From positions 1-64,000 of the IMG/VR virus record IMGVR_UViG_3300046758_000611: a DNA stretch of 64,000 bases; one strand, written 5' to 3'. Position 1 is the first letter of the stretch; the number at the start of each line of letters is the position of its first letter. The notes beneath the pieces are model-generated. The model was not told the DNA's origin. It did not search any database and saw only the letters and a program-made list of their open reading frames with translations. The translations under genes and the position numbers were made by a program. This document shows, piece by piece, positions 531 through 20,681 of the stretch. Source of the stretch: a virus.

Positions 531-1007
531 TTAGTGTATCACTTTAATTTTAAGTCCAGCACGAACAAAAGTTAATTTTACAAATTCTTCAAAAAAGAAG
601 ACATATGCAGGACCATCGTAGTTTTTTCTTGCTATTTCGATTTCCTTTTCGTATATCTCCATCCACTTAGTACAATCATCGTACACTTTTTTATCAACCA
701 CATCATGGGATAAATTATACCTATGAATATTCATTGCAAGTTGTAATTGATCTTTTGTTAATGTTGCATGAGTTTTAATATCTCTTTCAAACTGAATTTG
801 CATTTCTTTTTGTTTTTGAAGTTCCTCATAAGATTTTTGCAGTAACGGGTTGATTAATTCTTTCCAGTCTTTCCATTCTTCTTTACCACTCAATGCTTCT
901 TTAGGAGTGGGTGCTTTTATAAACCCATCACCCTCGGCACACGAAGTAACCAAGGGTGACATTAAAATAAAATATATAACATTTAAAAACCTAACAAAAA
1001 ATCGCAT
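531..1007 (-). CDS. Hypothetical lipoprotein
   Basis: Hydrophobic N-terminus ending VTSC; start abuts the stop of the protease gene. Confidence 0.5.
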   Translation of the reverse strand: MRFFVRFLNVIYFILMSPLVTSCAEGDGFIKAPTPKEALSGKEEWKDWKELINPLLQKSYEELQKQKEMQIQFERDIKTHATLTKDQLQLAMNIHRYNLSHDVVDKKVYDDCTKWMEIYEKEIEIARKNYDGPAYVFFFEEFVKLTFVRAGLKIKVIH

Positions 1008-2035: not shown

Positions 2036-2117
2036 AGTTTTACCCCCCTGGGTTAATTGGTTAATAATATATTTATATATATTACCCCATTGAGGGTTTT
2101 TAGTCAATTACATTAAA

Positions 2118-4705: not shown

Positions 4706-6121
4706 TTAACCAATATCAACACTATCTTCTTTATTATATGAATTTTTATTGTTCATTTGGTCATACTTGGATTTTAAAAGATTCTTTGCACCATTCTCAG
4801 AATCATTCATTTCCACCATTATTTCCGCACCCTTTGTACTTTGCTCATCATATATTTCAATAACACCAGAAGAAGTGTCAACTCTACTTGGAAATGTCAA
4901 ACCATCAGGTCCAAACCGATTTTTAATGACATGAAATCTACCTGTACTACTAACCTTGTCAGTTGCTTTTCTAGACAAACTTATCACAAAGTCTGCCGTC
5001 ATTATTTTACGATAACTATCCGCAACTTTTTGTGCTTCAATAATATTATCATCTAATGACGAACGACTTGCCTGTGATGCCGTCCAAACAGGCACTCCGA
5101 GTTCGCCCGCAAGGCCTCGAAGATCCTCATAAATTCCCCCCTGCTCAACATAACTGTTGGCATTATTTCCGTGATTACCCGGAGATAAAATATCTGCATA
5201 ATCAATTACAACCATATCAACTGGGTACCCCATTGTATTTGCTAAATTTGCGTGTGCAAGAATTGTACTTACTCCTACACTTTTTGTTGGATATTCTTTA
5301 ATAAGAAGTTTTCCTTTAATATTTGCTACGACATTTTTTACTTTTTCTTCATGCTCCATTATATCTTGAAATGGAATGCCCGTGAAGCAACTATCGTAAC
5401 GAAGTCCAACATAACACTCATTAAGTTCTAATGTATAATGTAATACATTCTTACCACTTTGCATTGCCGATTTACCAAGTGATGCTAAACACCAACTTTT
5501 ACCACCTCCTGCACTACTAATAATAACACCAAGTTCTCCAGGTCCCAATCCACCATTTGTTAAATCATCAATCACGTCCCAACCTGTGTTGATTGTATCC
5601 CGAGCAGTTTCTGACATTCTTAATGCTATATCACGTGCATAATCATGCCCTATGTCACGTTCTGTTCCTGCTTTTAGTGCATCATCTACAATTCGTTTAA
5701 TAGAGTCGTATTGACCACCTTTAAGAAAGTCAACACTCTGCATAATTGCGTTTTTAAGTTTTTGATTTTTACAAAAGTTTAAAAACTCATTTTTAACAAA
5801 TTCAGCATCGTTCGTATCAACTTGTGTGAATATACTTCTAAGTTGATCAATGATTGCGGCCTTTAGTGAATCAATGTTTACATCATCACACTTAATCTTA
5901 AATACATCAAGTGTTGTTGTTCTTTTATACTTACCATAATGCGTTAAAATTTCATCTACAATCCACTTATGTGCTTCACTTTCCCAATATTCAGTTTCAA
6001 TAATATCGTGAGTTCTTTCCAAGAACTTTTTATCGTCAATTAAAGCACGAATGGTTTTACTTTGAAATGCAGTTCCAAACTTTTGTAAGGTATCCACATT
6101 ATTATTTATAGTCTCCGTCAT
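4706..6121 (-). CDS. Replicative DnaB-like (T4 gp41-like) helicase
   Basis: Walker A SSAGGGKS, YTLEL, IDYADI, VWTASQ, KNRFG. Confidence 0.92.
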   Translation of the reverse strand: MTETINNNVDTLQKFGTAFQSKTIRALIDDKKFLERTHDIIETEYWESEAHKWIVDEILTHYGKYKRTTTLDVFKIKCDDVNIDSLKAAIIDQLRSIFTQVDTNDAEFVKNEFLNFCKNQKLKNAIMQSVDFLKGGQYDSIKRIVDDALKAGTERDIGHDYARDIALRMSETARDTINTGWDVIDDLTNGGLGPGELGVIISSAGGGKSWCLASLGKSAMQSGKNVLHYTLELNECYVGLRYDSCFTGIPFQDIMEHEEKVKNVVANIKGKLLIKEYPTKSVGVSTILAHANLANTMGYPVDMVVIDYADILSPGNHGNNANSYVEQGGIYEDLRGLAGELGVPVWTASQASRSSLDDNIIEAQKVADSYRKIMTADFVISLSRKATDKVSSTGRFHVIKNRFGPDGLTFPSRVDTSSGVIEIYDEQSTKGAEIMVEMNDSENGAKNLLKSKYDQMNNKNSYNKEDSVDIG

Positions 6122-6131
6122 ATATTAAATT

Positions 6132-6160
6132 AGATTATCAAATGATTGGAATCCAATCAA
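6132..6160 (-). promoter_or_regulatory. sigma70-like promoter containing a perfect 8-bp inverted repeat (possible operator)
   Basis: TTGATT-17 nt-TAATCT; TGATTGGA-A-TCCAATCA palindrome at 6143-6159. Confidence 0.45.
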
Positions 6161-6177
6161 GACTTTTTTTAAAAAAA

Positions 6178-7257
6178 TTACGATTGTGAAGAAATCGCAT
6201 AACTATTTAGCACCGACCAAGTTTCCATTAACCAATTATGATGATTCGGAAATGCAGCCCATAATTGGTCTTCGGCAAATTTTTTACTAAACTCAAACTT
6301 ATTAAGTTCAGTCACAGGTGACTCAACATGGTCAAATATTTTTGTTTGCATACTTGCAGGTAAAATACTATCTTTAAGTTGCATCAAATCATAGTTTCTT
6401 TTTAACAATAATTGATTTTCTTCTTTTAGAAAATTTTTATACAAAGGCATCTGCGGTTTTCTGTCTTCGGAAATTTTTAATAAATCCTCAACAGACAATT
6501 TTGATTCGTTTGCAAATTCAGGGAAAGCAGTTTTTAACTTTTTTTCACCAACACCCTTTATACCTGCTATATTATCACCACGGTCTCCATCTATGGTTCG
6601 GTATACCAAAAAGTTGTTTGGGTGTATGCCATATTCAAGTAAAACTTTTTCTTGTGTATACAAAGTTCTTTTGGTGGGACTATATACTGTAACATCCTCA
6701 TCAACGAGTTGAATGAAATCTTTATCAGTACTCATTATAGTTGTCCGTTTACCAAGGCCACTAAATTTTGATCTAGCAAGTAATGCGATTACATCGTCTG
6801 CTTCTACATTATCAATGCAAATCGTAGTTACTGGTAGCATATTTAAATACTCAATGAGTTTCACAATTTGATACTTCATAGAACTTGATTCTTCACTCTG
6901 ATCCATATCTAAACTTAACGCACGATTTACACGAAATCGTACATTTTTTTTCATTTTGTAATCTGGAAATATTTTTCTTCTTCGTGTACTACCACCTTTT
7001 CCATCAAACACAACTACACATCTAGTTGGTTTTCGTAAACGAATTGCATGACCGATACTTTTTAAAAAACCTGTATATCCACCTATATGATCACCATTTT
7101 CATTTGTAGTTGGATACATACTCCAAACTCGCATGAATGTGTTCATACCATCAACTAAAAGTGTGTCGGAATTTATATCCCGTTCCACTTCTAATTCATT
7201 CTTTTTTTCTTTTGAAAATTCTTGAAATAAACTAAATATTTTACTTTTATCACTCAT
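6178..7257 (-). CDS. 5'-3' exonuclease / flap endonuclease (T4 RNase H-like)
   Basis: LLVDGMN, VVFDG, YK, EADDVIA, STDKDFIQL, GDRGDNIAGIKGVGEK (H3TH). Confidence 0.92.
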   Translation of the reverse strand: MSDKSKIFSLFQEFSKEKKNELEVERDINSDTLLVDGMNTFMRVWSMYPTTNENGDHIGGYTGFLKSIGHAIRLRKPTRCVVVFDGKGGSTRRRKIFPDYKMKKNVRFRVNRALSLDMDQSEESSSMKYQIVKLIEYLNMLPVTTICIDNVEADDVIALLARSKFSGLGKRTTIMSTDKDFIQLVDEDVTVYSPTKRTLYTQEKVLLEYGIHPNNFLVYRTIDGDRGDNIAGIKGVGEKKLKTAFPEFANESKLSVEDLLKISEDRKPQMPLYKNFLKEENQLLLKRNYDLMQLKDSILPASMQTKIFDHVESPVTELNKFEFSKKFAEDQLWAAFPNHHNWLMETWSVLNSYAISSQS

Positions 7258-8407
7258 CCGATATTGATGCCAATTCTTGTTCTACAATTGTATCATTATC
7301 TTCAAATTCAACATCTTCATCAATGACACTATTTGCAGATTCATACTGCATAACAACTTTGTCACAAATTTGAGTATATAACTCGTCTTTTAGTTCAGGA
7401 TTTTCTGCTAACAAAGTTGGAAATTCCTTTGCCATAAACTTGTGTTCATTTTCTTTAGAATCAACATAGGTGTAATATGCCCCACCTTGCTTAAATACTT
7501 TATGAGTTTTAAGTGTAGTAATCCAACTTCCCAAATCATCAATACCACGATTGAAATAAATTTCAAAGGCTGCTTTTCTTTGAGGAGGACCCATACGATT
7601 CTTAACGATTGTTGCTTCGCACTTATTTCCGATTACTTCGGTTGTAGAACCCTGTTTGATTTGTCCAAGATTCTTTAAACGAAGACGAACACTTGCGTGG
7701 AATGCCAATGCTTTACCACCACTTGTTGTCCACGGATCACCAAACATAACTCCCATCTTTTGACGAAGTTGGTTGGTGAATACTAAAGCAATTCGTTGAC
7801 GTCCTATTGTAGAAGTCAACTTACGCATTGCTTTACTAATTAGAATTGCTTTGGTTGTTGCAAATCCATCTTTACTATAATCTGCGGACATTTCTACTTT
7901 AGTTGATGCGGCCGCAACACTATCTGTCACAATAGTTACGAGTCTATCTTTGTTGCTTTTACGAATCGTTGCGATGATATTATCAATTGTTGCGAAGATG
8001 TCTTCTACAGTATCTACATGAACATACAACAACTTGGTTGTATCAACACCGATAGCAGTTAAATATTCAATACTAACACTTGTTTCCGTGTCTATATACA
8101 CTGCAACACCTCCCTTCTTTTGAGTTTCCGCAAGAATGTGACCACACAACAAACTTTTACCACTTTGTTCTAGTCCAGTTACTTCGGTGATTCGTCCCAC
8201 AGGAATTCCACCATTCGGACGATTTGAAATTGCCAAATCAAGTAAACTACTACCTGTTGGAATCCAATCGGAAATTAAAGAAGGATCATCTCCTTCATTT
8301 AAAAAGAATGCTACTTTACCTTCATCCTTATACGCAGAGTTTAGACTTTCTGCAAGTACAGATGCTAAATCTTCTGATTTTGTTTTATCTTCTTTTTTTC
8401 TTGCCAT
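7250..8407 (-). CDS. recA: RecA/UvsX recombinase
   Basis: IPTGSSLLDLA, GRITEVTGLEQSGKS, YIDTE, DSVAA, FTNQLR, TSGGKALAFHASVRL; likely start MARKK at 8407. Confidence 0.95.
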   Translation of the reverse strand: MARKKEDKTKSEDLASVLAESLNSAYKDEGKVAFFLNEGDDPSLISDWIPTGSSLLDLAISNRPNGGIPVGRITEVTGLEQSGKSLLCGHILAETQKKGGVAVYIDTETSVSIEYLTAIGVDTTKLLYVHVDTVEDIFATIDNIIATIRKSNKDRLVTIVTDSVAAASTKVEMSADYSKDGFATTKAILISKAMRKLTSTIGRQRIALVFTNQLRQKMGVMFGDPWTTSGGKALAFHASVRLRLKNLGQIKQGSTTEVIGNKCEATIVKNRMGPPQRKAAFEIYFNRGIDDLGSWITTLKTHKVFKQGGAYYTYVDSKENEHKFMAKEFPTLLAENPELKDELYTQICDKVVMQYESANSVIDEDVEFEDNDTIVEQELASISDE

Positions 8408-8424
8408 AAATTTTAAATTGATAT

Positions 8425-8453
8425 GAGGGTGGTTGGAGATGCCAACCACCCTC
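8425..8453. other. GC-rich 12-bp hairpin between the gp32 and recA genes
   Basis: GAGGGTGGTTGG-agatg-CCAACCACCCTC perfect stem; no U-tract follows it on the coding strand. Confidence 0.7.
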
Positions 8454-8461
8454 TTGGTTTT

Positions 8462-9292
8462 TTAAGACTTAAACAACTCTTCAAAAGCTGCCTCTACATC
8501 TTCCGTGGAAGTTGCATTGGGTTTACTTTTCTCTGAGGTAGCACTTGCAACTTCGGGTTGCTTTACTTCAGTTTGAGTTGATTCAACTACAACTTCATCA
8601 GTTGATACTGATTCGGCCGGTGGTGCATCTTCTTCGGACTCACCACTTACCCATTTTTCAAGAGCATCTTTCAATTCATCATAACTCAATTCTTGATAAA
8701 TTTCTGTGATTTCTGCTTGGTTGTTTGCAACTGACTCTGCGATATTCTTATTGTCAGATACAGGAGATGTGTTGGGTTTTACACGAATATTTGTTTTTGG
8801 AAATGATCGTCCTGCTTCTTCTGCCGAGAGAAACTCAATTGTGATGTCTCTTCCATTAATTGGATCAGTAATGTCTCCATAATCGGGGTCTGCAATAACT
8901 CCGAGTAGTTCTTGATATACTTCTTTACCAAAACCCCAAAAACGAACTCCTTCTGCTTCTTCACCACGAACGATGACAGGAACGAAAGTTCTCATTTTAG
9001 GCATAAGTGAACGTCCCATACGATAATCATCCTTATCTCCACTACGAGTTAACTTTTCAGCAAACTCAACGATAGGGTCTGGACGACCAAACGATTTTGG
9101 GGACAGATATGTCCGGTTGTTGATTCCATAGTGAAAGAACAATTCGATAAACGGATTATCCGGTTGGTGCATATAAGGCACAATACGAACCTGTTGTTTG
9201 CCAGGTTGAGGTTTCCATTGGTAATTCTTACGATTATTACTCTGAGAGAGGTTTGTAAGTTTTGCTTTGATTTTATCTAGGTCAATTGCCAT
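8462..9292 (-). CDS. Single-stranded DNA-binding protein (T4 gp32-like)
   Basis: WKPQPGKQQVRIVP, FHYG, FWGFGKEVY, DITDPINGRD, acidic C-terminal tail ending FEELFKS; sits next to recA. Confidence 0.85.
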   Translation of the reverse strand: MAIDLDKIKAKLTNLSQSNNRKNYQWKPQPGKQQVRIVPYMHQPDNPFIELFFHYGINNRTYLSPKSFGRPDPIVEFAEKLTRSGDKDDYRMGRSLMPKMRTFVPVIVRGEEAEGVRFWGFGKEVYQELLGVIADPDYGDITDPINGRDITIEFLSAEEAGRSFPKTNIRVKPNTSPVSDNKNIAESVANNQAEITEIYQELSYDELKDALEKWVSGESEEDAPPAESVSTDEVVVESTQTEVKQPEVASATSEKSKPNATSTEDVEAAFEELFKS

Positions 9293-9334
9293 TTTTTAAT
9301 CCTTAATTTAGTATTTGTTATTATTATTCTTAAT

Positions 9335-9363
9335 ATAATACAACTCGATTTGAATTTCGTCAA
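9335..9363 (-). promoter_or_regulatory. sigma70-like promoter for the gp32-recA-exonuclease genes
   Basis: TTGACG-17 nt-TATTAT. Confidence 0.7.
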
Positions 9364-9378
9364 TCAGAATTGTATACA

Positions 9379-9609
9379 TCAAGAGAGTTTTTCGCCATTT
9401 TCAACGAAATTGTAAAAGTCCGAAGCAATTTCTAATACTTCGTGTGTAGTTGGAATTGGTGGTATTTCTAAGGGAGTATTTTCAAATCTGGCACGACTTT
9501 CCAACTCGTCTTTTTCCATGTGCCATGCTTCCCATACCATCTCTTTTGCGTTTTTTAACACTTCTAATCGTATGCCGTGGGCATCGTATTTTTTATCTTT
9601 ATTACTCAT
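9379..9609 (-). CDS. Small hypothetical phage protein
   Basis: 76-aa ORF (IRLEVLKNA...ASDFYNFV) filling the gap, preceded by the recurrent ATATTTAT motif. Confidence 0.7.
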   Translation of the reverse strand: MSNKDKKYDAHGIRLEVLKNAKEMVWEAWHMEKDELESRARFENTPLEIPPIPTTHEVLEIASDFYNFVENGEKLS

Positions 9610-9693
9610 TTTTTAATTATTATTTAGTCAATTATATTTACTATATATAAATATATTTTACTTGAATTTTATATCAATTTCAAGGCAAAAAAA

Positions 9694-10449
9694 TTAACTT
9701 TTTTTGATCAATCTTTTCTTAGAAAGTTTAACTGCGTTTGGATTTATATCACAACCAATGTAATTGCGATTCAAAGACTTTGCTACTTCAAATGTCGTTC
9801 CACTTCCACAGTAAAAATCACCGACTAAGTCACCTTCATTGCTACTTGCTTTAATAATTCTTTCTAAAATCTTAGGATGTTTTTCACTATAATAATCAGT
9901 TGCTTTTTTAACTTTTAAACCAGATGGAATATCATCCCAAACATTTGTAGGTATCGTTCCAACTTTTAGTTTTTCTTCTGTAATATTCGGTCTATCTTGT
10001 TTTTTACTGATTACTGATTTATATGGAACTCTGATGGACATATCATTAAAAACAAAATCATCAGACTTTGTGTATACGATTATATAATCATGCTTTTTTG
10101 CAAATTCTTTTTTTCCTCGTCCACCTATATTAAATTTTACGACAATTTGATTTCTGAAATTTTCATATCCAAACACACTATCCATTAGAATTCGTATCCA
10201 ATGTACAATTCGTAAATCCATTTGTAAATAAATTGTACCGGTGTCAGACAATATACGTTTCATTTCATGCAAACGAGGAATATAATGATTGTTTATTTCG
10301 TTTTTATTTGGTTTTAAATCTGTGTAATCCTTAAATTTTTTACCAGTTCCATATAAAATATCACAATAAATTAAGTTTACACATTCAGAATCCAATTTAT
10401 TTAGAAGTGTTAAGTTATCGCAAGTATGAACTTCGTTTTCTATTTTCAC
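9694..10449 (-). CDS. DNA amino-methyltransferase (N6A/N4C, beta class), orphan
   Basis: Motif IV-like YCDILY near the N-terminus, HDYIIVY, NVWDDI, KHPKILERII, motif I DFYCGSGT near the C-terminus; no cognate endonuclease nearby. Confidence 0.85.
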   Translation of the reverse strand: MKIENEVHTCDNLTLLNKLDSECVNLIYCDILYGTGKKFKDYTDLKPNKNEINNHYIPRLHEMKRILSDTGTIYLQMDLRIVHWIRILMDSVFGYENFRNQIVVKFNIGGRGKKEFAKKHDYIIVYTKSDDFVFNDMSIRVPYKSVISKKQDRPNITEEKLKVGTIPTNVWDDIPSGLKVKKATDYYSEKHPKILERIIKASSNEGDLVGDFYCGSGTTFEVAKSLNRNYIGCDINPNAVKLSKKRLIKKS

Positions 10450-10452
10450 TTA

Positions 10453-12018
10453 TCAAAGTTTACCACCTTCGTATCTTTTAAGTTCTCCATTGTTAAATCT
10501 ATACCTAACTTCAATTTCAATGGTTTCTTTTTCGGCACCGTATCCTTCTTCTACAAGATCATATGTTAAAAGATTAATTGGTTTTTTGATAATTTCGTGT
10601 AAGTATGCCATTGTACCAGTTGCATATTTTATATCAAGTGGTCTGCCTTCAAAGTCATGTCTAAGTAATATTTCAGTATTTTTATATTTCATATTCTCCA
10701 TGTAAATAACAGGTCTTCCCATATTAACATGACGATTTACAAGTTTTTTCTTGATTGCCTTATAATCTTTGCTTACGACAACATACTTGTTTGTAGACTT
10801 ATCAAGTGCATATTCAAAATACTCATTTTTTTCACAAAACTCTTTTGTAAAAAATTCATTTAAAAAAGTTACATCGTTATAGTTTTCACGAACTTCATAG
10901 ATTTTTTCACGACCCAAATTAAGATTCTTATTCCAATATCTTTTTTCATCTCCATTGTCGCAATTTTCGTATTCCTTACCAAACTTTCCTTTATTCCAAC
11001 GATCTTCAATATCTCGCAACAAAGAATTACCAAGTTTATATGGATTATTCATGTTATATTTTCCACCTAAAACACCAGCATGATGTTTTGCATACGCAAA
11101 GATTCCTTCATCTCCTGCAAAATTACAAGTCGCCATAATATATGAATCCCAATAACTTGCCCAACCTTCATTTAGAACCTTTGTCATTCCTTGTGGACGA
11201 TAGTAAATAGATTCATCACGAATCATACTAAGAATATTTTGTTGCCAAGGTTCTAAACGACAATGGTTAATAATCATAAGCATAATATCACGTTCAGGAC
11301 GCAAGGGAAATTTATTTTCTGCTAATTTTTTTCTTTCTTCACGTTCACTTCTTTGCTTTTCAATATAATGCGTGGGATTAACATACTTTTGCATATACTC
11401 TTTAGTATCTAATCTTGTAACGTGTTCACGTGGTTGACGATCTTCAAAGTTAAATTTTGTTGCTTTCTTTAGATTACTTTCACGATAACAAAGTGAAGGA
11501 TCAATTAGATCGTCAATTGCCAAGGCCGCATTCAAAAAGTCTTTTACTTTTTTACGTCCAAAACGATCCATATACATACGAATTTTATCACTATGATTTG
11601 CCATAACATTCATCATATTACGATTAGTATGCTTGAACATAATGTTGTTCTTAAAGAAATCACTATGTGCAGTTGCGTGTGCAACAACAGTCAAATTATC
11701 AACAATAGGATTATTTCTTTGTAGGTACATATAAGTCGGATCGGTATTTACCACCATTTCATAAATCTTACCCATACCTGAATGATATTGATGATGAAGT
11801 TGTTCAAATTGTTGTCCAAAATTAAAATGTGGGTAACGAACAGGAAACCCACCATAGGCCGCAATTTCAACTATTTCATCCGCATCAAATTCTTCAATAC
11901 ATAAAGGGTATGGATCAAGTCCATTATCATAACAGGCCTTTAGTACATCAGGTATAAGTTTTGCAAGTTCTTTGCAAACTCCATATTGTAATTTATCACT
12001 TTCCCATGCAATTCCCAT
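10453..12018 (-). CDS. spoVR: SpoVR/YcgB family protein
   Basis: GFPVRYPHFNFG, IYEMVVNTDP, AHATAHSDFFKNN, TKVLNEGWASYW, NPYKLG, YNDVTFL. Confidence 0.93.
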   Translation of the reverse strand: MGIAWESDKLQYGVCKELAKLIPDVLKACYDNGLDPYPLCIEEFDADEIVEIAAYGGFPVRYPHFNFGQQFEQLHHQYHSGMGKIYEMVVNTDPTYMYLQRNNPIVDNLTVVAHATAHSDFFKNNIMFKHTNRNMMNVMANHSDKIRMYMDRFGRKKVKDFLNAALAIDDLIDPSLCYRESNLKKATKFNFEDRQPREHVTRLDTKEYMQKYVNPTHYIEKQRSEREERKKLAENKFPLRPERDIMLMIINHCRLEPWQQNILSMIRDESIYYRPQGMTKVLNEGWASYWDSYIMATCNFAGDEGIFAYAKHHAGVLGGKYNMNNPYKLGNSLLRDIEDRWNKGKFGKEYENCDNGDEKRYWNKNLNLGREKIYEVRENYNDVTFLNEFFTKEFCEKNEYFEYALDKSTNKYVVVSKDYKAIKKKLVNRHVNMGRPVIYMENMKYKNTEILLRHDFEGRPLDIKYATGTMAYLHEIIKKPINLLTYDLVEEGYGAEKETIEIEVRYRFNNGELKRYEGGKL

Positions 12019-12022
12019 AATT

Positions 12023-13177
12023 TTAAAAAGGTACTTCCTCTTCGGCAGGAGTTAATAATTTTTTAAGTGACTTTAATACATCACTTCTGTCATCCAACGA
12101 TGTGGTTACAATGGTTTTGGGATCAAGTTCACCACTTGATAATTTAGATTGAATGTGTGGTAAAAATGTTGCCCAACTTCTGATTGCTTTTACTTCTGTA
12201 ATTCCGATTAAATTAGAATACTTTTGCATCTTTTTAAGATAATCAACACACACTTCATTGTCTGAACCAAAATTTTCTCCATCACTTAAATAAAATACAT
12301 AAATATTCCACTCATCGAGAGGAAATGCCTTTTCAACAATGTCATCAACTAAGTGAAACGCACTACTAATTTGAGTTCCTCCTCCACTTTTGTATTTGTA
12401 AAACTTTTCTTGGTCTACTTCTTGAGCATGATGATCATGTACAATATATTTTACCTGAGTTTCTTGGTAAAATCGTTGCACCCAGTTATCTAAATACCAA
12501 CACAATTCACGAACAATTTCTCGTTTTTCTTCATCCATACTTGCAGAGATATCAGATACAAAAAATATTACAGCATTTGTATCAGGGTTTTCGACCGAAC
12601 TCCAACTTCTAAATTCTTTATCGTCTTTAACTGGATAAAAGTTAGATAAATCCTCAGGATCATATTCACTTGAGGAAATAAGTCGTTTGAAAGCATTTTT
12701 TAATGTTTTTCGTTTATGAAGTAAACTATTATTTCCTACTTTTGCGATACGATTCCATTTAATTTTTTCTTTAACCATCTCACCATTTTCTTTTGGAAGA
12801 AGATTGGGAAGTTGCAGTTCTTCTCCTATCATATCAAAGTAAGCATCCATACTAATTCCAACATCAATTTCGTGGCCATCACCTTCACCTTCACCACCAT
12901 CACCTGGTTGACCACCCTGCCCTTGACCTTGGGGTGGTCCTTCTCCTACTTCGTCACCTACGTCTGCCTGTCCGTTTCCAATGCCACTTCCATCGGATGG
13001 TTGCCCATAACGAAAACTCGGAAGTTCTACATGAGGAACTTTTACGACAACAAAGTCTTTTCCACGACGAGTGATTCTCTGTCCTGATTTAATATGATTT
13101 TTAAGTTTATCGGATACGTTTCCTTTAACGATATCACGATACTCTTTATGATCTTCTCTGATTCTGCGAGATGGCAT
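12023..13177 (-). CDS. yeaH: YeaH/YhbH (DUF444) family vWA-domain protein
   Basis: Gly-rich linker, ELQLPNL, MIDAS-like DISASM, SGGGTQISSA, WNIYVFYLSDGEN; lies between prkA and spoVR. Confidence 0.9.
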   Translation of the reverse strand: MPSRRIREDHKEYRDIVKGNVSDKLKNHIKSGQRITRRGKDFVVVKVPHVELPSFRYGQPSDGSGIGNGQADVGDEVGEGPPQGQGQGGQPGDGGEGEGDGHEIDVGISMDAYFDMIGEELQLPNLLPKENGEMVKEKIKWNRIAKVGNNSLLHKRKTLKNAFKRLISSSEYDPEDLSNFYPVKDDKEFRSWSSVENPDTNAVIFFVSDISASMDEEKREIVRELCWYLDNWVQRFYQETQVKYIVHDHHAQEVDQEKFYKYKSGGGTQISSAFHLVDDIVEKAFPLDEWNIYVFYLSDGENFGSDNEVCVDYLKKMQKYSNLIGITEVKAIRSWATFLPHIQSKLSSGELDPKTIVTTSLDDRSDVLKSLKKLLTPAEEEVPF

Positions 13178-13209
13178 ATAGAATTATCCGTTGATTATTA
13201 TTATTAATA

Positions 13210-15312
13210 TTAATCTTCGTCTTCGTCTGCGTCACCTCTTGCGAAAATACTACCTACATAAGTAAGAACATCCGAAGCACTATCTTCATCGTATCCAAAA
13301 GATGTAATAAGACGTTGCTTCAACGCATCAATTTTTTCAAGAAGTTCTTTGTCAACTACAGTTGCAGTATCTTGAGCAAGAGCAGATAACTTGATGCTAT
13401 CTTTGGTATCTTCAAACAACTTCTTTTCAAGTGCTTTGTATAACTGCTCATTAGAGTCGTATTTAAACTCTTTACCTTTGGCGGCAAGTCCACCCATGTA
13501 GTTCATAATTTCTCTACGAAAATCGTCTTTCATTCCCTCAGAAATTCCTATTTTTTCTTCTATACTACGCATAAGTTGTTCATTTGCAGTTTCTTCTTTT
13601 CCAGTTACAGGGTTTGTAACTTTCTCGTCCTGAATATAAGCAACAATATTATCAATATAGTTTGTGCAAGTTGCTTTTATTGCTTCTTCACTGCTACTAA
13701 GTGCCTGTTGCACTTCTCTTTTCACAATTCTGTCATATTCTTTTTCAACCATTTCAAGTCTTTCCATCATGTTCTTTTTATCATCTTCTGATGAAAACCC
13801 ACTATGACTTTTCAACCCTTCACGGATTTGTGCAAATAACATAAATGGATTTAAACTCTTAGCACCCATTCTTGGATTAACAATTGCATTGGAAAACTGA
13901 TTTTGAATGAAACGTGCTGACACCCCACCATATAATCCTTCTTTTGGAGATTCTTCTTGCATTTCTTTTACGTGTTCATCCGTAAAACCATGCACACTTT
14001 GACCATTGTAAAGTTTTGCCTTCTGAATAATACTCATATCTTGCTTTGTGCTTTCTTCTAAACGACTTACAACTGCAAATAAAGCAGCCAAATATGTTGT
14101 ATGTGGTGCAATGTGTTTGTTTACAGTACTTTTGTTATAGAAGTGATCATAAATCTTCTTTTCTTCGTCAATCTTGAGAAGGTACGGAATATCAATTTTA
14201 ATTGTTCTGTCACGAAGTGCTTCCATGAATTTGTTGTTGGTTAATTTTTCAAATTCAGCATTATTTGTATGACCAAGAATAACTTCATCAATCGGTACTT
14301 GATTGAAACGACGTGGTTTAACACGGTGTTCTTGGGTTGCCCCAAGTAAATCATATAAGAACTCAGTTTGAAGTTTAAGAATTTCTTGGAACTCAATCAA
14401 ACCACGATTTGATACGAGAAATTCTCCATCAAAATCAAATGCACGGGGATCACTTTCACTTCCGTATTCTGCTAACTTACGATAATTAATATCACCGGTA
14501 AGTTCGGTTGCATCTTGTGACTTTTCGTCTTTCGGTTGAAAAGTTCCTATACCGATGCGGTTTTTTTCTGACAATGCAACTCGTCTGACTACAATATGAT
14601 CTAGTACTTTGCGATAGTCTCCACCATGCAATTCCATTAATTGGTTATAGTAAAATTCATTTACCGGGTTTAATGCTCCATCTAATTTGATTCGATAGTC
14701 ATCTTTGTCAAGAGTTGAATTAATTTTAGAAATAATAGATTCTTTAATGTCTTCTGGTAAGAGTTTCAATGGCTCTTCGTTCATTGGACACGGAACGAGT
14801 TTTTCATTTCCACTTTCATCGGTAAGTTTCCAACTAAATGAATATAATGCACCTTCATTAGTTCGTGTGTATGCCTCAAGACCTTTTTTCAGTGCAGTAA
14901 CAATTGTAGACTTACTACTTCCAACAGGGCCGTGGAGTAATATAACACGTCGTTCTGGTCCGTAATGTCTACTTGCACTTTTAAGTATGTCCATAAACTC
15001 CATTAGATTTTCCTCAAGTCCATAAATTGAGATGTCACCGAGTCCTTCAAAGAATTTGTATCTTACATATGTTCGTTTGCAATAAGTTGTCTCGTTAGTT
15101 CCATGAGACATTACCATGTCGTATAATCTTTGATATGAATTTCTTGCGATGGTAGGTTTTTCTTCCACCATATTGATGTAATCCCAAAACGAACCTGTCC
15201 AATTTAACGATTCGTATGATTGAATTGCGTCATTGTTTTCAGACTTAATTAAAGATTCAAGACTACTTTTTGAATCTTTCTTTTTTTCTTCATATCTTTT
15301 TTTATTTTCCAT
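13210..15312 (-). CDS. prkA: PrkA/YeaG family AAA+ protein (serine protein kinase family)
   Basis: LHGPVGSSKST, CPMNEEPL, GIGTFQPKDEKSQD, SDPRAFDFDGE, NRGLIEFQE, EALRDR; likely start MENKK at 15312 (ORF track extends to 15360). Confidence 0.95.
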   Translation of the reverse strand: MENKKRYEEKKKDSKSSLESLIKSENNDAIQSYESLNWTGSFWDYINMVEEKPTIARNSYQRLYDMVMSHGTNETTYCKRTYVRYKFFEGLGDISIYGLEENLMEFMDILKSASRHYGPERRVILLHGPVGSSKSTIVTALKKGLEAYTRTNEGALYSFSWKLTDESGNEKLVPCPMNEEPLKLLPEDIKESIISKINSTLDKDDYRIKLDGALNPVNEFYYNQLMELHGGDYRKVLDHIVVRRVALSEKNRIGIGTFQPKDEKSQDATELTGDINYRKLAEYGSESDPRAFDFDGEFLVSNRGLIEFQEILKLQTEFLYDLLGATQEHRVKPRRFNQVPIDEVILGHTNNAEFEKLTNNKFMEALRDRTIKIDIPYLLKIDEEKKIYDHFYNKSTVNKHIAPHTTYLAALFAVVSRLEESTKQDMSIIQKAKLYNGQSVHGFTDEHVKEMQEESPKEGLYGGVSARFIQNQFSNAIVNPRMGAKSLNPFMLFAQIREGLKSHSGFSSEDDKKNMMERLEMVEKEYDRIVKREVQQALSSSEEAIKATCTNYIDNIVAYIQDEKVTNPVTGKEETANEQLMRSIEEKIGISEGMKDDFRREIMNYMGGLAAKGKEFKYDSNEQLYKALEKKLFEDTKDSIKLSALAQDTATVVDKELLEKIDALKQRLITSFGYDEDSASDVLTYVGSIFARGDADEDED

Positions 15313-15319
15313 AACCATT

Positions 15320-15348
15320 ACCTTATATTTTTTTTGTGAGTGAGTCAA
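15320..15348 (-). promoter_or_regulatory. Possible sigma70-like promoter of the prkA operon
   Basis: TTGACT-17 nt-TAAGGT, just upstream of ATG 15312. Confidence 0.4.
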
Positions 15349-15356
15349 ATGTTTTA

Positions 15357-15755
15357 TCAAATATTTTGAATTTTAAACAATTTTGTATCAATTTTTCTAA
15401 TGTCACCCGTAGGTGAAGTTAATAATATACAATTTTCATAATTGTTCCAATTAATTTGGAATTTCAAATCAAGAAGACCGTTATTTAAATGTTTAATTAG
15501 CATATTCAGTGAATTTATTGTGTATATAGTGTTTGAATCTTTTTTTCTATGAACACTTATAGTATTACTAAAGAAGTTACTTTTATTTAGTAAAGCAGAA
15601 TTTATATTGTATGTCAAATAAATCTCATTTAAATCATCGACATTCTGCAAAGCATACACTTTTCCGAATAAAATATCATAAAAACTCGAAACCTGCTTGA
15701 TAATTTCATTATAGTTCTGAATATCTGTAAATGTACAAAGTAGTTGAGTTTTCAT
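15357..15755 (-). CDS. Hypothetical phage protein
   Basis: Likely start MKTQLLCTF at 15755; HRKKDSNTIYTINSLN segment; directly downstream of the polymerase gene. Confidence 0.65.
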   Translation of the reverse strand: MKTQLLCTFTDIQNYNEIIKQVSSFYDILFGKVYALQNVDDLNEIYLTYNINSALLNKSNFFSNTISVHRKKDSNTIYTINSLNMLIKHLNNGLLDLKFQINWNNYENCILLTSPTGDIRKIDTKLFKIQNI

Positions 15756-15807
15756 TAATAATAACCTTTTTATTTTGTTAGTTATCCATAAATATATATT
15801 AGAAAAC

Positions 15808-17079
15808 TCAAACATGGATTTCTGCTAAATCTCCATAACTTCCTCCAGCATATAGTTTTAAAGGAAACTGGTCATCTGGATTCATAATTTTTATTATATC
15901 CTTAATCGAATTAAACTCACATTTATGCAAATCAAACAAAAAAGCATCGTATGTATACAACGATAAATTTATTTGTTTTCCATTAATAAATTGTAAAATA
16001 TTTTTCAAAACCTTGCAATTTCTTTCAGTTTCTGCTGATTGTAGTAAATAATTAAAAACTTTATATGGGTTTGGTTTATCTTCAAATACATCAGAATATA
16101 TTCTCCTTTTATATATCCAAGTTTCTACAAAATTATTTTTTTGATAGAAATCTTTAACTTCCATGATATAGTCGTGTATTGATTTCATAAATGGAACATT
16201 ATCAATTATATCTTGGGTTATTCCACCGTACATTAAATTAAATGTAATCTTCTTGGAAAGATCATACTCTTCTTCTGTTAATTCGTCTTTCCCGTGATAC
16301 AGTTTACCTAGATATGTGTGTAAAGATTCGTTGGGTAAATTATATCCTACATGATTGGCAAATAATCTCAAATGATAACTTTCATAATCAATCATTGCCA
16401 TAGCACCGTCATCTCCGTATCTACTTACATAATCGTTTCGTTCTCCTTCCTTTTTATTTAATGCAAGAAAATTTATATTGTTATATCGATTACTTGGTCT
16501 TGATGTTGGTGTGAATAAATTATATTGAGTGCTAAGTAATCTATTATTCTTTTCGGAAAATATTTTACTTTTTTCCAGTTCACATAATACTTCACTTAAA
16601 TCATTTATAAATTTGTCGGTTGGTGATTCGTATGTGTTTAGTGCATTTTTAATACTTTCGAAGGTATCGTTGAACTTTTTTAAAATCATCATTATAGGAA
16701 TTGATTTATTACTTTTACATCTCGGTAAATCAATTTGAATTTTACTTTTATTTCTATAATAAACATGAAGAGATATATCAACTGAGTTTTCAAAACTTAC
16801 AATATGATTTGTATCCTTTTTATTTACTATTATTTTTCTACAAGAAGATTTTGCAATTTTATCAAGCACTCGTGTATCAATATTCACAACATCAGGATGT
16901 GAAAAGGATACTGCAAATGTATCATTATTATCTATATTTTTAATTAATAAAACTAATGGTTTTACTTCAATTGGGTGAGTTTCCTGTTCTTCTACGAATA
17001 AGTGAAAAAAAAATTGTTCTGTACTATCAAGTTTACTAAGTAAATGTTTGAATTCGGATATTGTTTCAACAAAATGCAT
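15808..17079 (-). CDS. Compact family A DNA polymerase
   Basis: TSRPS (TGRLS-like), motif A IDYESYHLR, motif B KKITFNLMYG, NYLLQSAE, motif C YTYDAFLFD; likely start MHFVE at 17079. Confidence 0.8.
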   Translation of the reverse strand: MHFVETISEFKHLLSKLDSTEQFFFHLFVEEQETHPIEVKPLVLLIKNIDNNDTFAVSFSHPDVVNIDTRVLDKIAKSSCRKIIVNKKDTNHIVSFENSVDISLHVYYRNKSKIQIDLPRCKSNKSIPIMMILKKFNDTFESIKNALNTYESPTDKFINDLSEVLCELEKSKIFSEKNNRLLSTQYNLFTPTSRPSNRYNNINFLALNKKEGERNDYVSRYGDDGAMAMIDYESYHLRLFANHVGYNLPNESLHTYLGKLYHGKDELTEEEYDLSKKITFNLMYGGITQDIIDNVPFMKSIHDYIMEVKDFYQKNNFVETWIYKRRIYSDVFEDKPNPYKVFNYLLQSAETERNCKVLKNILQFINGKQINLSLYTYDAFLFDLHKCEFNSIKDIIKIMNPDDQFPLKLYAGGSYGDLAEIHV

Positions 17080-17089
17080 TTCGTTTATC

Positions 17090-17118
17090 ATAATACGAAA
17101 TGATTTTTAACTTGTCAA
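17090..17118 (-). promoter_or_regulatory. sigma70-like promoter of the polymerase gene
   Basis: TTGACA-17 nt-TATTAT. Confidence 0.7.
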
Positions 17119-17552
17119 TATGAATTTTTATAAAATTGTGTGACAGATGGAATTTTATTTTTTATTCCACTAAATTTTTTTTCTGCGTTGTTCAGTACAA
17201 GTGTATTATGTTCAATTACTCCCAATTCATTTTTGATATTTCCAGTAGATATAGAATTTAAGTCTCCTGCTATTTTCCAATCAAATTGTATAATTTCAAA
17301 AAAATTCGAGTTTTTAAATCCATTGTATTGATTTATACCAACCTCAACAATTCTATACCGTGGGTCACTTGATTTTTTTATAAAATATCTTGTTATAAAT
17401 TTATTTAAATAATCATCTTTTGTGATTTCTATAATTTCTTCCTCAGGAAATTCCGAAAGATCCCGCAAATTCATTCGTGTTTGTGATACGAGTAATTGCG
17501 AATAAAACGAGTTCAATTCTTCGTTTTCTGTGATATTTTTATTACTTTTCAT
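17115..17552 (-). CDS. Hypothetical protein (end of baseplate operon)
   Basis: 145-aa ORF overlapping the stop of the upstream gene. Confidence 0.6.
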   Translation of the reverse strand: MKSNKNITENEELNSFYSQLLVSQTRMNLRDLSEFPEEEIIEITKDDYLNKFITRYFIKKSSDPRYRIVEVGINQYNGFKNSNFFEIIQFDWKIAGDLNSISTGNIKNELGVIEHNTLVLNNAEKKFSGIKNKIPSVTQFYKNSY

Positions 17553-20379
17553 TTGAATTTGGTCTTAGTATTGCACGAACTGTAGTTTCCCAATCACCAT
17601 TTTGAACTGCATGATCGATTGCAGTTATTTGCCATATTCCGTTCATGAACCAATGAGTTGGAATTCCTGTACAATTGAAAGCATCAAGCATTCTTAGACC
17701 TTCAATTCCATCGATAGTCAATGTCATTTCACATCCATCTATCGGTTGATTATATCCTTTTACTGCGTTTTCAGGAATCATATCACTTGTCATTGATTCT
17801 TTTACCCTAGCTGTATCTATATCAACGCATTGTATGTCGTATCCCGCAAGAGTTCCTTTCATTGGAATTATAAAATATTCCTTGTTAGTTTTTTCCGCCT
17901 CATCGTCTTCTTCAGTAGTTTCTTCTCTCACCACACCCGGAATTACTTTCACACCCTCTACTTCTTTTAAAATTCTATCGTTTTTACTTCGTTGATAAAA
18001 CGCAACCTGTGCGTCATCGTGTCTATCGTACACAACCATTGATTTTAATTCGGCAGGAACTTGTATGTCCAAATCAAGTCCACGAACTATACTATTTTTT
18101 TGATGTGCTCTGAAAATATATGCTTTATTATCTCGTTTTATCGTTTCAACAGTTTTATTTCCGTAAAACTTCATATCACGTATTGTTAGTTTAGTTTCAT
18201 TTGAAGTGTTTGAATCAAGTGGAACTACTCTAAAATCCCATATATCACAACACGCAGTTGATATTTTTTTCAGTATCGCATCTAACATTGTGATAATTGT
18301 TTTGTGATTTTTTACCGCATCTTTTATAACTGTGGTGTTTATATACAAATCCCTCAACCTTCCACTCATTCCCTTGGTACCAGGTAGAAAGTCTGGAAAT
18401 GGCTGCGATGGATATAAAACATTTTTATGTTTTTGAACAACTGTAATCACAGAGTGTAAGTTATCTCGCATATTCGTTGCAATACCCGTTTTACTTGTTG
18501 ATGCGTATATTTCATTTAATCTTAATTGTGCATTTGCCGTTTTTCCAAAAGTGTTATTTTTTGCGAGTGCATTTGCGGTCATTGTTCCGTAGAAAATTGT
18601 AGAAGTTGAACCATCAAACTTCTTACTTCTGTTTCTACGTGGTGCAACCGCATTTGGTATCAACAAAACATTTCCATCGGTTGATTTTATATTCGGATGT
18701 GCTATACAACGAGAATTTGCTATATCAAGACGATATAAATCTCCTTTTGTTTTAACTTTTCTTGAAAAGAAGTTGTTTATTATGACACTCAGCATATATA
18801 ATGATATAAATTTATCTTCGTTATCCCCGGCATGATAAACATTTCCTTTGTCTGCTTCACTCGGAGCATAAACATGACGATATGCTCTTAGTTTTTTTAA
18901 AAATTCTGAGGAATTAACCCCAAGATCATTGATTGATCTTGAATTTCCTCCGAAAGTACCAGTACCACTATCACCTTCCGCAAGATCAACAACTATATCA
19001 TCCAAGTCTTCTTCTATAAATTTTTTAAAATTTGAAAGTTTTGTAGGTTCTTCAGAATCTGCACTTTGTACTTTTTTATTTTGTGCTTTTGTTGCATCAT
19101 TGGTCATCATCTTAGCAACTTGAGCCATGCTAGTTAACTCTACACTACAATCATACCCACCGTCTTGTCTAAGTGAATAACTATAATTACTTATCATACC
19201 GATAGCAAAACTATAATTGCCTTTACCAGATTTCATTTTCTCATGGCATACGTGGCCATCATTAAATAAACCTACCAACCCAGTCGGTCTTGAAATTAGT
19301 TTACCCTCCGCATCAGCACCTGCACTTATATTTTGTTTACGACCTTCATTTTTTCTACGAGCATTCACAAGTTTTGCTTCACTTTCTGTTAAAGAACCTC
19401 CACGACCTTTTGCTAAAACATAGTTTGAAGAACCATCTGCAACATCAGGTGATCCTGTATACATTTTTCCAGGTCTTCCTACATTTTTTAAATCAATTAG
19501 TGCTTCTCTTGGAAAATGATTCCAGCCAAACTCTACAATAGCAGTTACACCAACCGTAAAAAAGTAAGGTTGAAGGTAATCTAATTGTGATCTACTCCAA
19601 CACACAAATTCAATTGTGGTTTTTCGTTCACCTGTTGCTATTCCAGAATATTCTACTTTTACATTCATTACACCAGGTGGTGGACGATGTTTAAAATCTG
19701 CTTCTTCAACTTGATGTGGATTACCCTGTGCATCAAATCCTAATACATTTTTATGTGTTTTACTTGGATCTTTAGAAAATCCATAGTTATCATCAAAACT
19801 TTCAACACCATGCATGATAAAACCTTCATGTATAGGCAATCCAATTTTATTATCCTGTGTTGTTGCATTTGATACAAATCGTGCCCATGCAGTTTTTGGT
19901 CCACGATAAATTGTATCTACATACTGATCATCAAGAAAACCTTGACTTCCTATTCCTAAATCTTTATCTCCAAATTCAGTTGAAGCATGAGTCCCACGAT
20001 CATTTGTACCTGTTCTTTCAGTTGGATAATGCATTCCATAATTTTTTTCTCTTCGCATTAACTCTCCACGTACATAATTTTGAATATGGGTAATATCTGA
20101 TCCAGTTGCACCGTCTTCCCAATCTGTGGATAATAAATCAATATCATCCTTTGCCAATAACATTGGTTCATAATTTAAAAGTTGAATTTCGGCATCCTTT
20201 GCGGTTGCGTATTGTGGTGCTATTTTACCAGATTCACTTTTTGCTTTTTCTTTTTCTTTTTCTTTATCACCAAACAACCCACCGAATGGTAATTTTGATT
20301 TATTTGATAATCCACCACCATGCGATCCAAGTAAATTACTTGCTAAATTTTTTGCACTACTTGAAATGGGTAAGTTCAT
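17542..20379 (-). CDS. Putative baseplate hub protein
   Basis: Follows TMP, tube initiator and LysM genes; C-terminal beta-rich MTLTIDGIEG...WQITAIDHAVQNGDWETTV resembles the end of gp27/VgrG-type hubs. Confidence 0.55.
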   Translation of the reverse strand: MNLPISSSAKNLASNLLGSHGGGLSNKSKLPFGGLFGDKEKEKEKAKSESGKIAPQYATAKDAEIQLLNYEPMLLAKDDIDLLSTDWEDGATGSDITHIQNYVRGELMRREKNYGMHYPTERTGTNDRGTHASTEFGDKDLGIGSQGFLDDQYVDTIYRGPKTAWARFVSNATTQDNKIGLPIHEGFIMHGVESFDDNYGFSKDPSKTHKNVLGFDAQGNPHQVEEADFKHRPPPGVMNVKVEYSGIATGERKTTIEFVCWSRSQLDYLQPYFFTVGVTAIVEFGWNHFPREALIDLKNVGRPGKMYTGSPDVADGSSNYVLAKGRGGSLTESEAKLVNARRKNEGRKQNISAGADAEGKLISRPTGLVGLFNDGHVCHEKMKSGKGNYSFAIGMISNYSYSLRQDGGYDCSVELTSMAQVAKMMTNDATKAQNKKVQSADSEEPTKLSNFKKFIEEDLDDIVVDLAEGDSGTGTFGGNSRSINDLGVNSSEFLKKLRAYRHVYAPSEADKGNVYHAGDNEDKFISLYMLSVIINNFFSRKVKTKGDLYRLDIANSRCIAHPNIKSTDGNVLLIPNAVAPRRNRSKKFDGSTSTIFYGTMTANALAKNNTFGKTANAQLRLNEIYASTSKTGIATNMRDNLHSVITVVQKHKNVLYPSQPFPDFLPGTKGMSGRLRDLYINTTVIKDAVKNHKTIITMLDAILKKISTACCDIWDFRVVPLDSNTSNETKLTIRDMKFYGNKTVETIKRDNKAYIFRAHQKNSIVRGLDLDIQVPAELKSMVVYDRHDDAQVAFYQRSKNDRILKEVEGVKVIPGVVREETTEEDDEAEKTNKEYFIIPMKGTLAGYDIQCVDIDTARVKESMTSDMIPENAVKGYNQPIDGCEMTLTIDGIEGLRMLDAFNCTGIPTHWFMNGIWQITAIDHAVQNGDWETTVRAILRPNSNEK

Positions 20380-20382
20380 TTA

Positions 20383-20673
20383 TTAATTGTTAATTTTATT
20401 ATGATCTAAGATAATTTCACCAAGTTCAGTTGGAATTCTTAATTGAGTTCCTGGATTAACAAACATTGTTCCTTTGATTCCGTTTGCATTTGCAATAACC
20501 CACCAGTATCTCGGATTTTTGTAGAACCTGTTTGCCAGATGATCGAGTCTTGTTTTCTCAACCATAACCACAAAAACATCCGATTCACGATTTCTAATTT
20601 TATTTAATAAAGTAGTTTCAAGAACTTCTTTATTATCCTCTCGGAATTTTGTTTTTACTTTTGCGTATCTCAT
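20383..20673 (-). CDS. LysM-domain baseplate protein (gp53/tail X-like)
   Basis: RLDHLANRFYKNPRYWWVIANANGI...PGTQLRIP. Confidence 0.85.
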   Translation of the reverse strand: MRYAKVKTKFREDNKEVLETTLLNKIRNRESDVFVVMVEKTRLDHLANRFYKNPRYWWVIANANGIKGTMFVNPGTQLRIPTELGEIILDHNKINN

Positions 20674-20681
20674 AATTTAAA

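Follow-up and report, generated by a model that had tools for sequence, protein, structure and literature searches.

The window analysed here, a 64,000-nucleotide stretch spanning positions 1 to 64,000 of the IMG/VR virus record IMGVR_UViG_3300046758_000611, derives from an uncultured marine T4-like phage and carries, in its replication region, adjacent homologues of prkA (yeaG), yeaH (yhbH) and spoVR (ycgB). We read this trio as a functional, phage-inherited PrkA–YeaH–SpoVR module that sits in a replication-region cassette, probably came from a phage donor, and serves the breakdown or remodelling of the host proteome, a composite reading in which we place middling confidence. Comparison with relatives demonstrated that the trio, together with a DNA methyltransferase (methylase) gene and a small open reading frame (ORF), is a cassette of about 6.1 kb that was inserted between the ORF o152 and the gp32 gene in the ancestor of one lineage of marine T4-like myoviruses and was then retained. 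The cassette genes and their two boundaries are as follows.

15357 to 15815, minus strand: o152, a small ORF that forms the upstream boundary of the cassette, as judged from synteny in relatives
13210 to 15318, minus strand: prkA/yeaG homologue of 702 amino acids (aa) counted from the ATG at 15318, with an N-terminal AAA+ domain and a PrkA C-terminal domain
12023 to 13177, minus strand: yeaH/yhbH homologue (DUF444, PF04285), in which a helix at the N-terminus and a loop rich in Gly, Pro and acidic residues (53-100) precede a C-terminal von Willebrand factor A (vWA) domain
10453 to 12018, minus strand: spoVR/ycgB homologue of 521 aa (PF04293), with a predicted zincin-like fold
9694 to 10449, minus strand: N6/N4 DNA methyltransferase (PF01555 at 1.5e-42)
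9379 to 9609, minus strand: 76-aa ORF, the last gene of the cassette, found at 49-89% identity at the same position in close relatives only
8462 to 9292, minus strand: gp32 single-strand DNA-binding protein (PF08804, phrog_1192), the downstream boundary of the cassette

Since loci found through PrkA must contain PrkA, the gain of the cassette was assessed in a survey seeded with gp32, in which close relatives (gp32 at least 84% identical, 6.5 kb or more of sequence available upstream; n = 27) were compared with distant ones (gp32 44-64% identical; n = 38). All three trio genes occurred with the methylase and the 76-aa ORF in 27/27 close relatives, whereas the trio genes were found in 0/38 distant relatives, from which the methylase was absent as well. 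The distance from o152 to gp32 was 6043-6117 nt in the window's lineage, as against 74-152 nt in 12 of the 38 distant relatives. This distribution, along with the near adjacency of o152 and gp32 in those 12 relatives, is the basis on which the insertion was concluded. The trio, being absent at the locus in the distant relatives, is not core to the wider T4-like family, as a preliminary description made from the sequence letters had already held. The methylase was co-inserted with the trio and is probably not part of its machine.

To estimate selection, ratios of nonsynonymous to synonymous substitution rates (dN/dS) were calculated pairwise against four relatives, the PrkA value being against L027 only. 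The values were 0.024-0.064 for SpoVR, 0.007-0.085 for DUF444 and 0.055 for PrkA, in comparison with 0.011-0.14 for gp32, UvsX and DnaB, and 0.14-0.45 for the PolA-like and 945-aa ORFs upstream. The trio is thus kept under strong purifying selection, as tight as that on the replication proteins. Meanwhile, conservation was seen to drop sharply at the PrkA start (15357-22790 compared with 4706-15318): the genes from PrkA to DnaB shared 80-98% identity with their counterparts in most relatives, and the upstream genes (o152 and the PolA-like, 145-aa, 945-aa and 702-aa ORFs) only 30-63%, so that the upstream block appears to be mosaic or fast-evolving.

The identity of the three genes was established by Pfam matches far above threshold. 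PrkA matched PF08298 (1e-85, 288 bits) and PF06798 (9e-72, 242 bits) against a cut-off of 25, YeaH matched PF04285 (1e-68, 232 bits), and SpoVR matched PF04293 (8e-107, 358 bits) over profile positions 5-405 of 407; all three families are included in PHROGs. The genes are adjacent on one strand in the order prkA-yeaH-spoVR, and the identical split between phages and bacteria in the three gene trees indicated that they are inherited jointly. The ORFs and Pfam matches bore out the earlier claim of three intact, tightly spaced genes, with gaps of 32 nt (13178-13209) between prkA and yeaH and 4 nt (12019-12022) between yeaH and spoVR, and the motifs picked out at that stage, namely GPVGSSKS, DISAS, HATAH and NEGWA, were all found, each in invariant alignment columns. 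The AT-rich composition said to resemble the flanks was likewise recovered, with a GC content of 0.33-0.36 over the trio and about 0.33 in the remainder of the window. The one coordinate to be revised was the PrkA start, for which the segment end at 15348 had been taken. Although the frame stays open to a TTG at 15360, the ATG at 15318 is most likely the start, rather than 15348 or 15360, because two independent assemblies call it, the upstream leader contains a stop in one relative (L005), and in two others (L027 and L028) the alignment does not begin until about residue 15.

The preliminary description had placed the trio in the phage replication region, and the phage genes on both sides and the repetition of this synteny across assemblies corroborated the placement. 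Downstream of the trio lie the methylase, the 76-aa ORF, gp32, UvsX/RecA, an exonuclease, DnaB and the large subunit of ribonucleotide reductase (RNR), and further along there are genes for a tail sheath, a gp23-type capsid protein and a portal protein. Upstream, o152 is followed by a weak PolA-like ORF (15808-17091), which scored 27 bits against a cut-off of 34.3. Of the position originally given, between the polymerase and gp32/recA, the gp32/RecA side accordingly stood, and the polymerase was reduced to this weak PolA-like match.

IMG/VR labels the 170-kb record as a provirus. No match to a tyrosine integrase (PF00589) was found in the record or in four relatives, GC content and skew were continuous with no compositional break, and the window's exact synteny was found in about 35 independent IMG/VR contigs from different samples, with the same gene string in Logan and ENA assemblies. 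A PrkA-seeded scan of IMG/VR returned 167 relatives, and every locus that was long enough contained PrkA, DUF444 and SpoVR in order. The provirus reading was rejected on the lack of an integrase, the continuous composition and the recurrent junctions. The label was probably produced by a pipeline that cut the contig just before nrdB. Past window position 1, a Logan contig of the same phage (SRR32281493_3983; L165:11008-19222) continues beyond the record edge with nrdB, DUF2784, an Ldh_2-family dehydrogenase, a thiolase, a FadB-like enoyl-CoA hydratase/3-hydroxyacyl-CoA dehydrogenase and an acyl-CoA dehydrogenase. These genes, though cellular-looking, lie on the phage-gene strand with equal GC and skew, and the thiolase recurs in three related viral IMG/VR records; they may form a phage-carried fatty-acid beta-oxidation island, and their cellular appearance is probably the reason for the label.

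The relation of the trio to its cellular counterparts was distant. Over 600 bacterial relatives of PrkA were found, and the 80 best of them, which came from Myxococcota, Planctomycetota, Bdellovibrionota and Chloroflexota, were only 52-56% identical to the window's protein. A chimeric host insert nearly identical to a bacterial chromosome, which the preliminary description had named as an outcome that would speak against it, was contradicted by this identity together with the junctions and the composition. When the trio was compared by megablast with 50,697 phage records, no match was returned, and it therefore has no close cultured relative.

In a FastTree phylogeny of 120 PrkA sequences, three starred groups were obtained, namely the window's lineage joined by its sister group of phages, huge phages including LR756511, and bacteria. 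IQ-TREE separated 21 phage rows from 30 bacterial rows of PrkA by one branch with a Shimodaira–Hasegawa-like approximate likelihood-ratio support (SH-aLRT) of 99 under both LG+G4 and LG+C20, and the SpoVR and DUF444 trees displayed the same split with SH-aLRT of 100 and 97; these trees are unrooted, sample the closest bacterial relatives and have long stems for both phage groups. A gp23-type capsid gene was present in all long-enough records of the huge-phage group that carry the trio, and their CheckV completeness implies genomes of about 500 kb. As judged from the trees, the donor of the cassette was probably another large phage and not a bacterium, and the simplest reading would be that the trio has long resided in large phages and moved among them as a unit. 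The PrkA proteins of Thermus phages and of the Ralstonia jumbo phage RsoM2USA, one of which served as the outgroup, lay outside the window's clade on long branches, which suggests separate origins for their trios. The Bacteroides thetaiotaomicron control genome contained no SpoVR.

With its length, the PrkA protein falls into the long subtype of about 690-700 aa. It shares about 55% identity with a "serine protein kinase" of solved structure, 9xip (9xip_A, E 7e-214, residues 44-708), one of three entries (9xip, 9xiq and 9xir) comprising 30 chains, for which no accompanying paper was found. Its Walker A motif, GPVGSSKS, was invariant in 16 sequences.

For YeaH, a structural model with a predicted local distance difference test score (pLDDT) of 76 comprised the N-terminal helix, the Gly-rich loop and the vWA domain. 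Foldseek matched it to vWA structures (E 4e-8, probability 1.0), including integrin-type domains, NorD and the metal-ion-dependent adhesion site (MIDAS) domain of Rea1. The MIDAS residues D209-x-S211-x-S213, T268 and D299 were complete and all invariant.

The model of SpoVR (pLDDT 81; predicted template modelling score, pTM, 0.77) was largely helical, and the residues H64, E87, H114, H118 and N283-E-G-x-A287 were invariant, as was an E87...N91 motif. In a wide search of this model with VIA-align, all of the top 50 rows were zincin-type folds or their close relatives (Z 11.3 to 6.0), including DUF885, M1 aminopeptidases, M32, thermolysin, M61, M3, ACE and YbeY. The best row had a Z of 11.3 over 184 residues with a root-mean-square deviation of 3.7, and about 180-200 residues were aligned over the top rows. 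In the model, H114-x-x-x-H118 is placed on a helix after two strands and H142 lies 24 residues past H118, as in the zincin layout. The motif reads HATAH instead of HExxH, with Ala in place of the catalytic Glu, and the family consensus is H-A-x-G-H; SpoVR was therefore not filed as a zincin peptidase of the Peptidase MA type. Foldseek against the PDB returned nothing at E 0.001 or better for the SpoVR model, a search against BFVD gave one unnamed viral protein only, Pfam searches with pieces of SpoVR at E up to 10 yielded no peptidase family, and no literature linking SpoVR to zinc or peptidases was found.

Complex prediction brought YeaH and SpoVR together. The pair gave interaction prediction scores from aligned errors (ipSAE) of 0.80, 0.80 and 0.79, and the best control gave 0.00. 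The mark used for this score is reached by 58/80 solved complexes and 2/110 mismatched pairs, counts that hold roughly here because our own alignments were used. The runs shared at least 87% of their contacts, with a pLDDT of at least 72 for the partners. No relative of either protein was found in the PDB, and the prediction therefore does not reproduce a solved structure. On the YeaH side, the predicted interface comprised residues 1-16, 38-83 and 104-107 and left the vWA/MIDAS domain free; within it, YeaH residues 1-16 and 52-83 were predicted to touch SpoVR at residues 47-77 and 398-472. These results support, as a prediction, the binding of SpoVR by the N-terminus of YeaH. In the huge-phage relatives L058, L059, L064, L073 and L074, an extra 0.7-2.4 kb was observed between PrkA and DUF444, and DUF444 and SpoVR were mostly adjacent, with a further gap of about 1.1-1.9 kb in L073 and L074; the tighter adjacency of DUF444 and SpoVR fits the predicted complex. 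As for the AAA+/vWA/metalloprotein machine originally proposed, the vWA fold with its MIDAS, the zincin-like SpoVR model and the predicted YeaH–SpoVR binding agree with it. An enzymatic activity drew no such support, as SpoVR lacks the catalytic Glu and both activities ascribed to PrkA are disputed.

The function of the module has to be approached through its cellular homologues. Escherichia coli YeaG, renamed SpdA, is required for a non-specific, starvation-induced bulk proteolysis that supplies amino acids and ATP (PNAS, October 2026, PMC13684143), and yeaG, yeaH and ycgB were cofit in six bacteria, for which the authors proposed a signalling pathway (10.1101/072470). By analogy with the former, host-proteome recycling is most likely the role of the trio in the phage. 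In the mechanism that we propose, PrkA would form an ATP-driven AAA+ ring, the N-terminal helix and Gly-rich loop of YeaH would clamp SpoVR, and the free vWA/MIDAS domain of YeaH would couple the YeaH–SpoVR pair to PrkA or to substrates. SpoVR would contribute a zincin-shaped, non-canonical metal site, and the three proteins would jointly degrade or remodel cytoplasmic proteins. During the replication phase, the phage would thereby turn the host proteome into amino acids and energy, in a manner similar to the YeaG-dependent starvation proteolysis of E. coli. The earlier suggestion that the phage remodels or degrades the proteins of starved host cells fits that proteolysis (PMC13684143) by analogy; the control of host dormancy, offered there as an alternative, drew no support. 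More tentatively, the trio itself might be the long-sought starvation protease complex, so that large phages would encode an autophagy-like machine for bulk proteolysis. SpoVR would then act as the hydrolase, non-canonical but with a zincin fold, which YeaH holds and to which the PrkA ring delivers substrates. A phage-only version would have passed between T4-like and huge phages in cassette form and would supply them with amino acids and ATP from the proteome of nutrient-poor hosts; we rate this stronger proposal as possible but rather unlikely.

Several observations weigh against host-proteome recycling by a dedicated module. The biochemistry of PrkA is disputed, having been described as that of a kinase (YeaG), of a weak protease (PMC9512850) or of neither (PMC13001217). 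The PNAS paper tests yeaG alone, makes no mention of YeaH or YcgB and does not identify any of the three proteins as the protease itself (PMC13684143). Because the SpoVR model is mostly helical, its zincin-fold match at a Z of about 11 is suggestive and not conclusive, and SpoVR, which lacks the general-base Glu of zincins, may represent a pseudo-enzyme or else a hydrolase of another kind. In addition, invariant columns were not enriched at the predicted YeaH–SpoVR interface (4/51 and 5/65, as against about 9-10% elsewhere), and scans for promoters and terminators gave counts equal to those in shuffled sequence, with nothing prominent. Furthermore, the closest relatives by capsid do not carry the trio, either in GenBank (LR756508 and Flavobacterium phage immuto) or among cultured phages (immuto at 53% and Microcystis phage Mel-JY01 at 50%), and the trio is therefore dispensable for the wider group.

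Among the alternatives, the best surviving one makes PrkA a Ser/Thr kinase, with YeaH and SpoVR as its regulators or substrates, which would re-set host metabolism like T7 gp0.7 with no bulk proteolysis. The annotation of the family as serine kinases, the kinase-like C-domain represented by PF06798, the autophosphorylation of YeaG and its phosphorylation of AceA (cited in PMC9512850), and the signalling pathway proposed in the cofitness paper (10.1101/072470) all speak for such a role. Two careful studies, however, found no kinase activity for Bacillus PrkA: one reported it as a weak ATP-dependent protease (PMC9512850), and the other found it to be neither kinase nor protease (PMC13001217). 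Since deletion of yeaG in E. coli causes loss of bulk proteolysis (PMC13684143), and since a zincin-like SpoVR fold and a vWA adaptor would be untypical partners of a kinase, we consider a signalling role doubtful.

A metal-cofactor or assembly chaperone, in which the AAA+/vWA pair would, like the MoxR–vWA pairs NorQ-NorD, CbbQ-CbbO and RavA-ViaA, remodel one target, either SpoVR or a phage metalloenzyme such as RNR, so as to load or extract metal, would be consistent with the adjoining AAA+ and MIDAS-vWA genes, with NorD and the Rea1 MIDAS among the structural matches, and with a YeaH predicted to hold SpoVR and its conserved His residues. The RNR large subunit is encoded 6-8 kb away and nrdB just past the record edge; on the other hand, the bacterial trio is unlinked to RNR, the cassette of the close relatives lies between o152 and gp32 and not beside RNR, and the E. 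coli phenotype is global rather than target-specific (PMC13684143), which leaves this possibility with a small share of the likelihood.

We assign a similarly low likelihood to counter-defence or another phage-specific use, in which the module would eliminate or inactivate selected host proteins, such as defence proteins or stress regulators, and would not provide the phage with nutrients. Whole and very divergent trios are carried by at least three groups of phages (the T4-like and huge-phage clade, the Thermus phages and RsoM2USA), which points to a general benefit, and a methylase gene, typical of anti-restriction, is part of the cassette. No PADLOC match tied the proteins to defence systems, the search giving no meaningful match, no specificity domain was evident, and the cellular homologue acts non-specifically (PMC13684143). 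Finally, the "provirus" label and the cellular nature of the trio families notwithstanding, it is extremely improbable that the segment is chimeric, was recently inserted from a host or is decaying cargo with no function, in view of the same junctions in dozens of independent assemblies, the lack of a compositional break or a detectable integrase, a best bacterial identity of 52-56%, dN/dS values of at most 0.085 and the intactness of all motifs.

If host-proteome recycling is indeed the role of the trio, it would parallel the nucleotide recycling genes located a few kilobases away and, for marine phage ecology, would extend the known recycling repertoire of large phages from nucleotides and energy to the proteome. 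The biochemistry of YeaG, YeaH and YcgB is a long-standing question, to which the role in bulk starvation proteolysis reported in October 2026 has been added. The occurrence of the trio in divergent phage groups, combined with the tight selection on it, argues that it acts as a self-sufficient unit working outside its native stress regulon. The phage versions, the predicted YeaH–SpoVR contact and the zincin-like SpoVR fold thus offer handles for reconstituting the machine.

Other features of the window were also recorded. The T4 late-promoter motif TATAAATA had no match near the trio on the gene strand, and no copy occurred between 9694 and 17552, but it was seen 18 times in the window compared with 8.65 expected. 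Its plus-strand copies were mostly intergenic (e.g. 4649, 9646, 32719, 33708, 40751 and 48122); on the gene strand these read as TATTTATA, in many cases 37-48 nt ahead of a start codon, and TATAAATA/TATTTATA may be a promoter-like element. An Rfam search of the 8-18 kb interval gave no match. Adjoining the RNR large subunit, there is a 366-aa ORF (1007-2107, minus strand) that the assembly gene table lists as a serine protease of the Trypsin_2 family (PF13365), a second protease-like gene in the region. A 2775-aa ORF (22820-31147, minus strand) had no PHROG match, and the 945-aa ORF (17542-20379, minus strand) matched neither PHROGs nor Pfam.

Several known systems share parts of this architecture. 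In the MoxR-class pairs NorQ-NorD, CbbQ-CbbO and RavA-ViaA, as in the window, the ATPase gene adjoins a gene for a MIDAS-vWA protein, and the vWA domain of YeaH matches the NorD and Rea1 MIDAS structures. The AAA+ motor with its zincin-shaped partner, in turn, resembles an FtsH acting in trans, FtsH/YME1 being AAA+ metalloproteases. Unlike either group, PrkA has a kinase-like C-domain and SpoVR has no HExxH Glu, and, unlike in the MoxR pairs, the predicted binding of SpoVR involves the N-terminus of YeaH and not its vWA domain; we do not claim membership of the trio in the MoxR class or among the AAA+ metalloproteases.

One close counterpart is the cellular PrkA/YeaG–YeaH/YhbH–SpoVR/YcgB module, represented by yeaGH and ycgB in E. 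coli and by prkA-yhbH and spoVR in Bacillus subtilis, and encoded in one operon in most bacteria. It comprises the same Pfam families, has the gene order prkA, yeaH, spoVR in most of 80 bacterial loci, and shares with the window the invariant Walker A, MIDAS and SpoVR motifs. The window's version differs in being encoded by a lytic-type T4-like phage within its replication module, in grouping with huge phages, apart from the sampled bacteria, in each of the three gene trees, and presumably in standing outside RpoS/NtrC or sigma-E control. Its PrkA is only about 26-29% identical to YeaG-type copies (the Enterobacter LAU1 record and RsoM2USA).

Among phages, the trio is already known. PrkA and SpoVR occurred together in 16/50,697 phage records, and the cultured phages annotated with the trio are the Thermus phages phiYS40, TMA, YS40_Isch, phiLo, MN1 and Lalka and the jumbo phage RsoM2USA (ORF30, 29 and 28), the trio genes of which were listed singly (PMC8504454). 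In all of them the three genes are clustered, at 26-33% identity to the window for PrkA and 21-26% for SpoVR; RsoM2USA has the window's gene order, whereas phiYS40 has the order DUF444-SpoVR-x-PrkA. The huge uncultured phages (about 500-640 kb; LR756511 and IMG/VR records with gp23-type capsids) are closer, with the window's gene order, PrkA proteins 47-51% identical and a position on the same side of the trees, and differ in genome size and flanks. Some of their SpoVR genes (L047:11239-14061, L053:11283-14204 and L070:12197-16321) were observed to carry homing inteins (Hint + LAGLIDADG) at N91/T92 (EMVVN|T) and A287/S288 (NEGWA|S), beginning with Cys and ending with His-Asn, and L070 has them at both sites. 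In comparison with these phages, the window represents a system of a known kind, of which it is a well-supported instance; what it adds is a clear case of gain and retention of the trio within a cassette, along with the predicted contact between YeaH and SpoVR.

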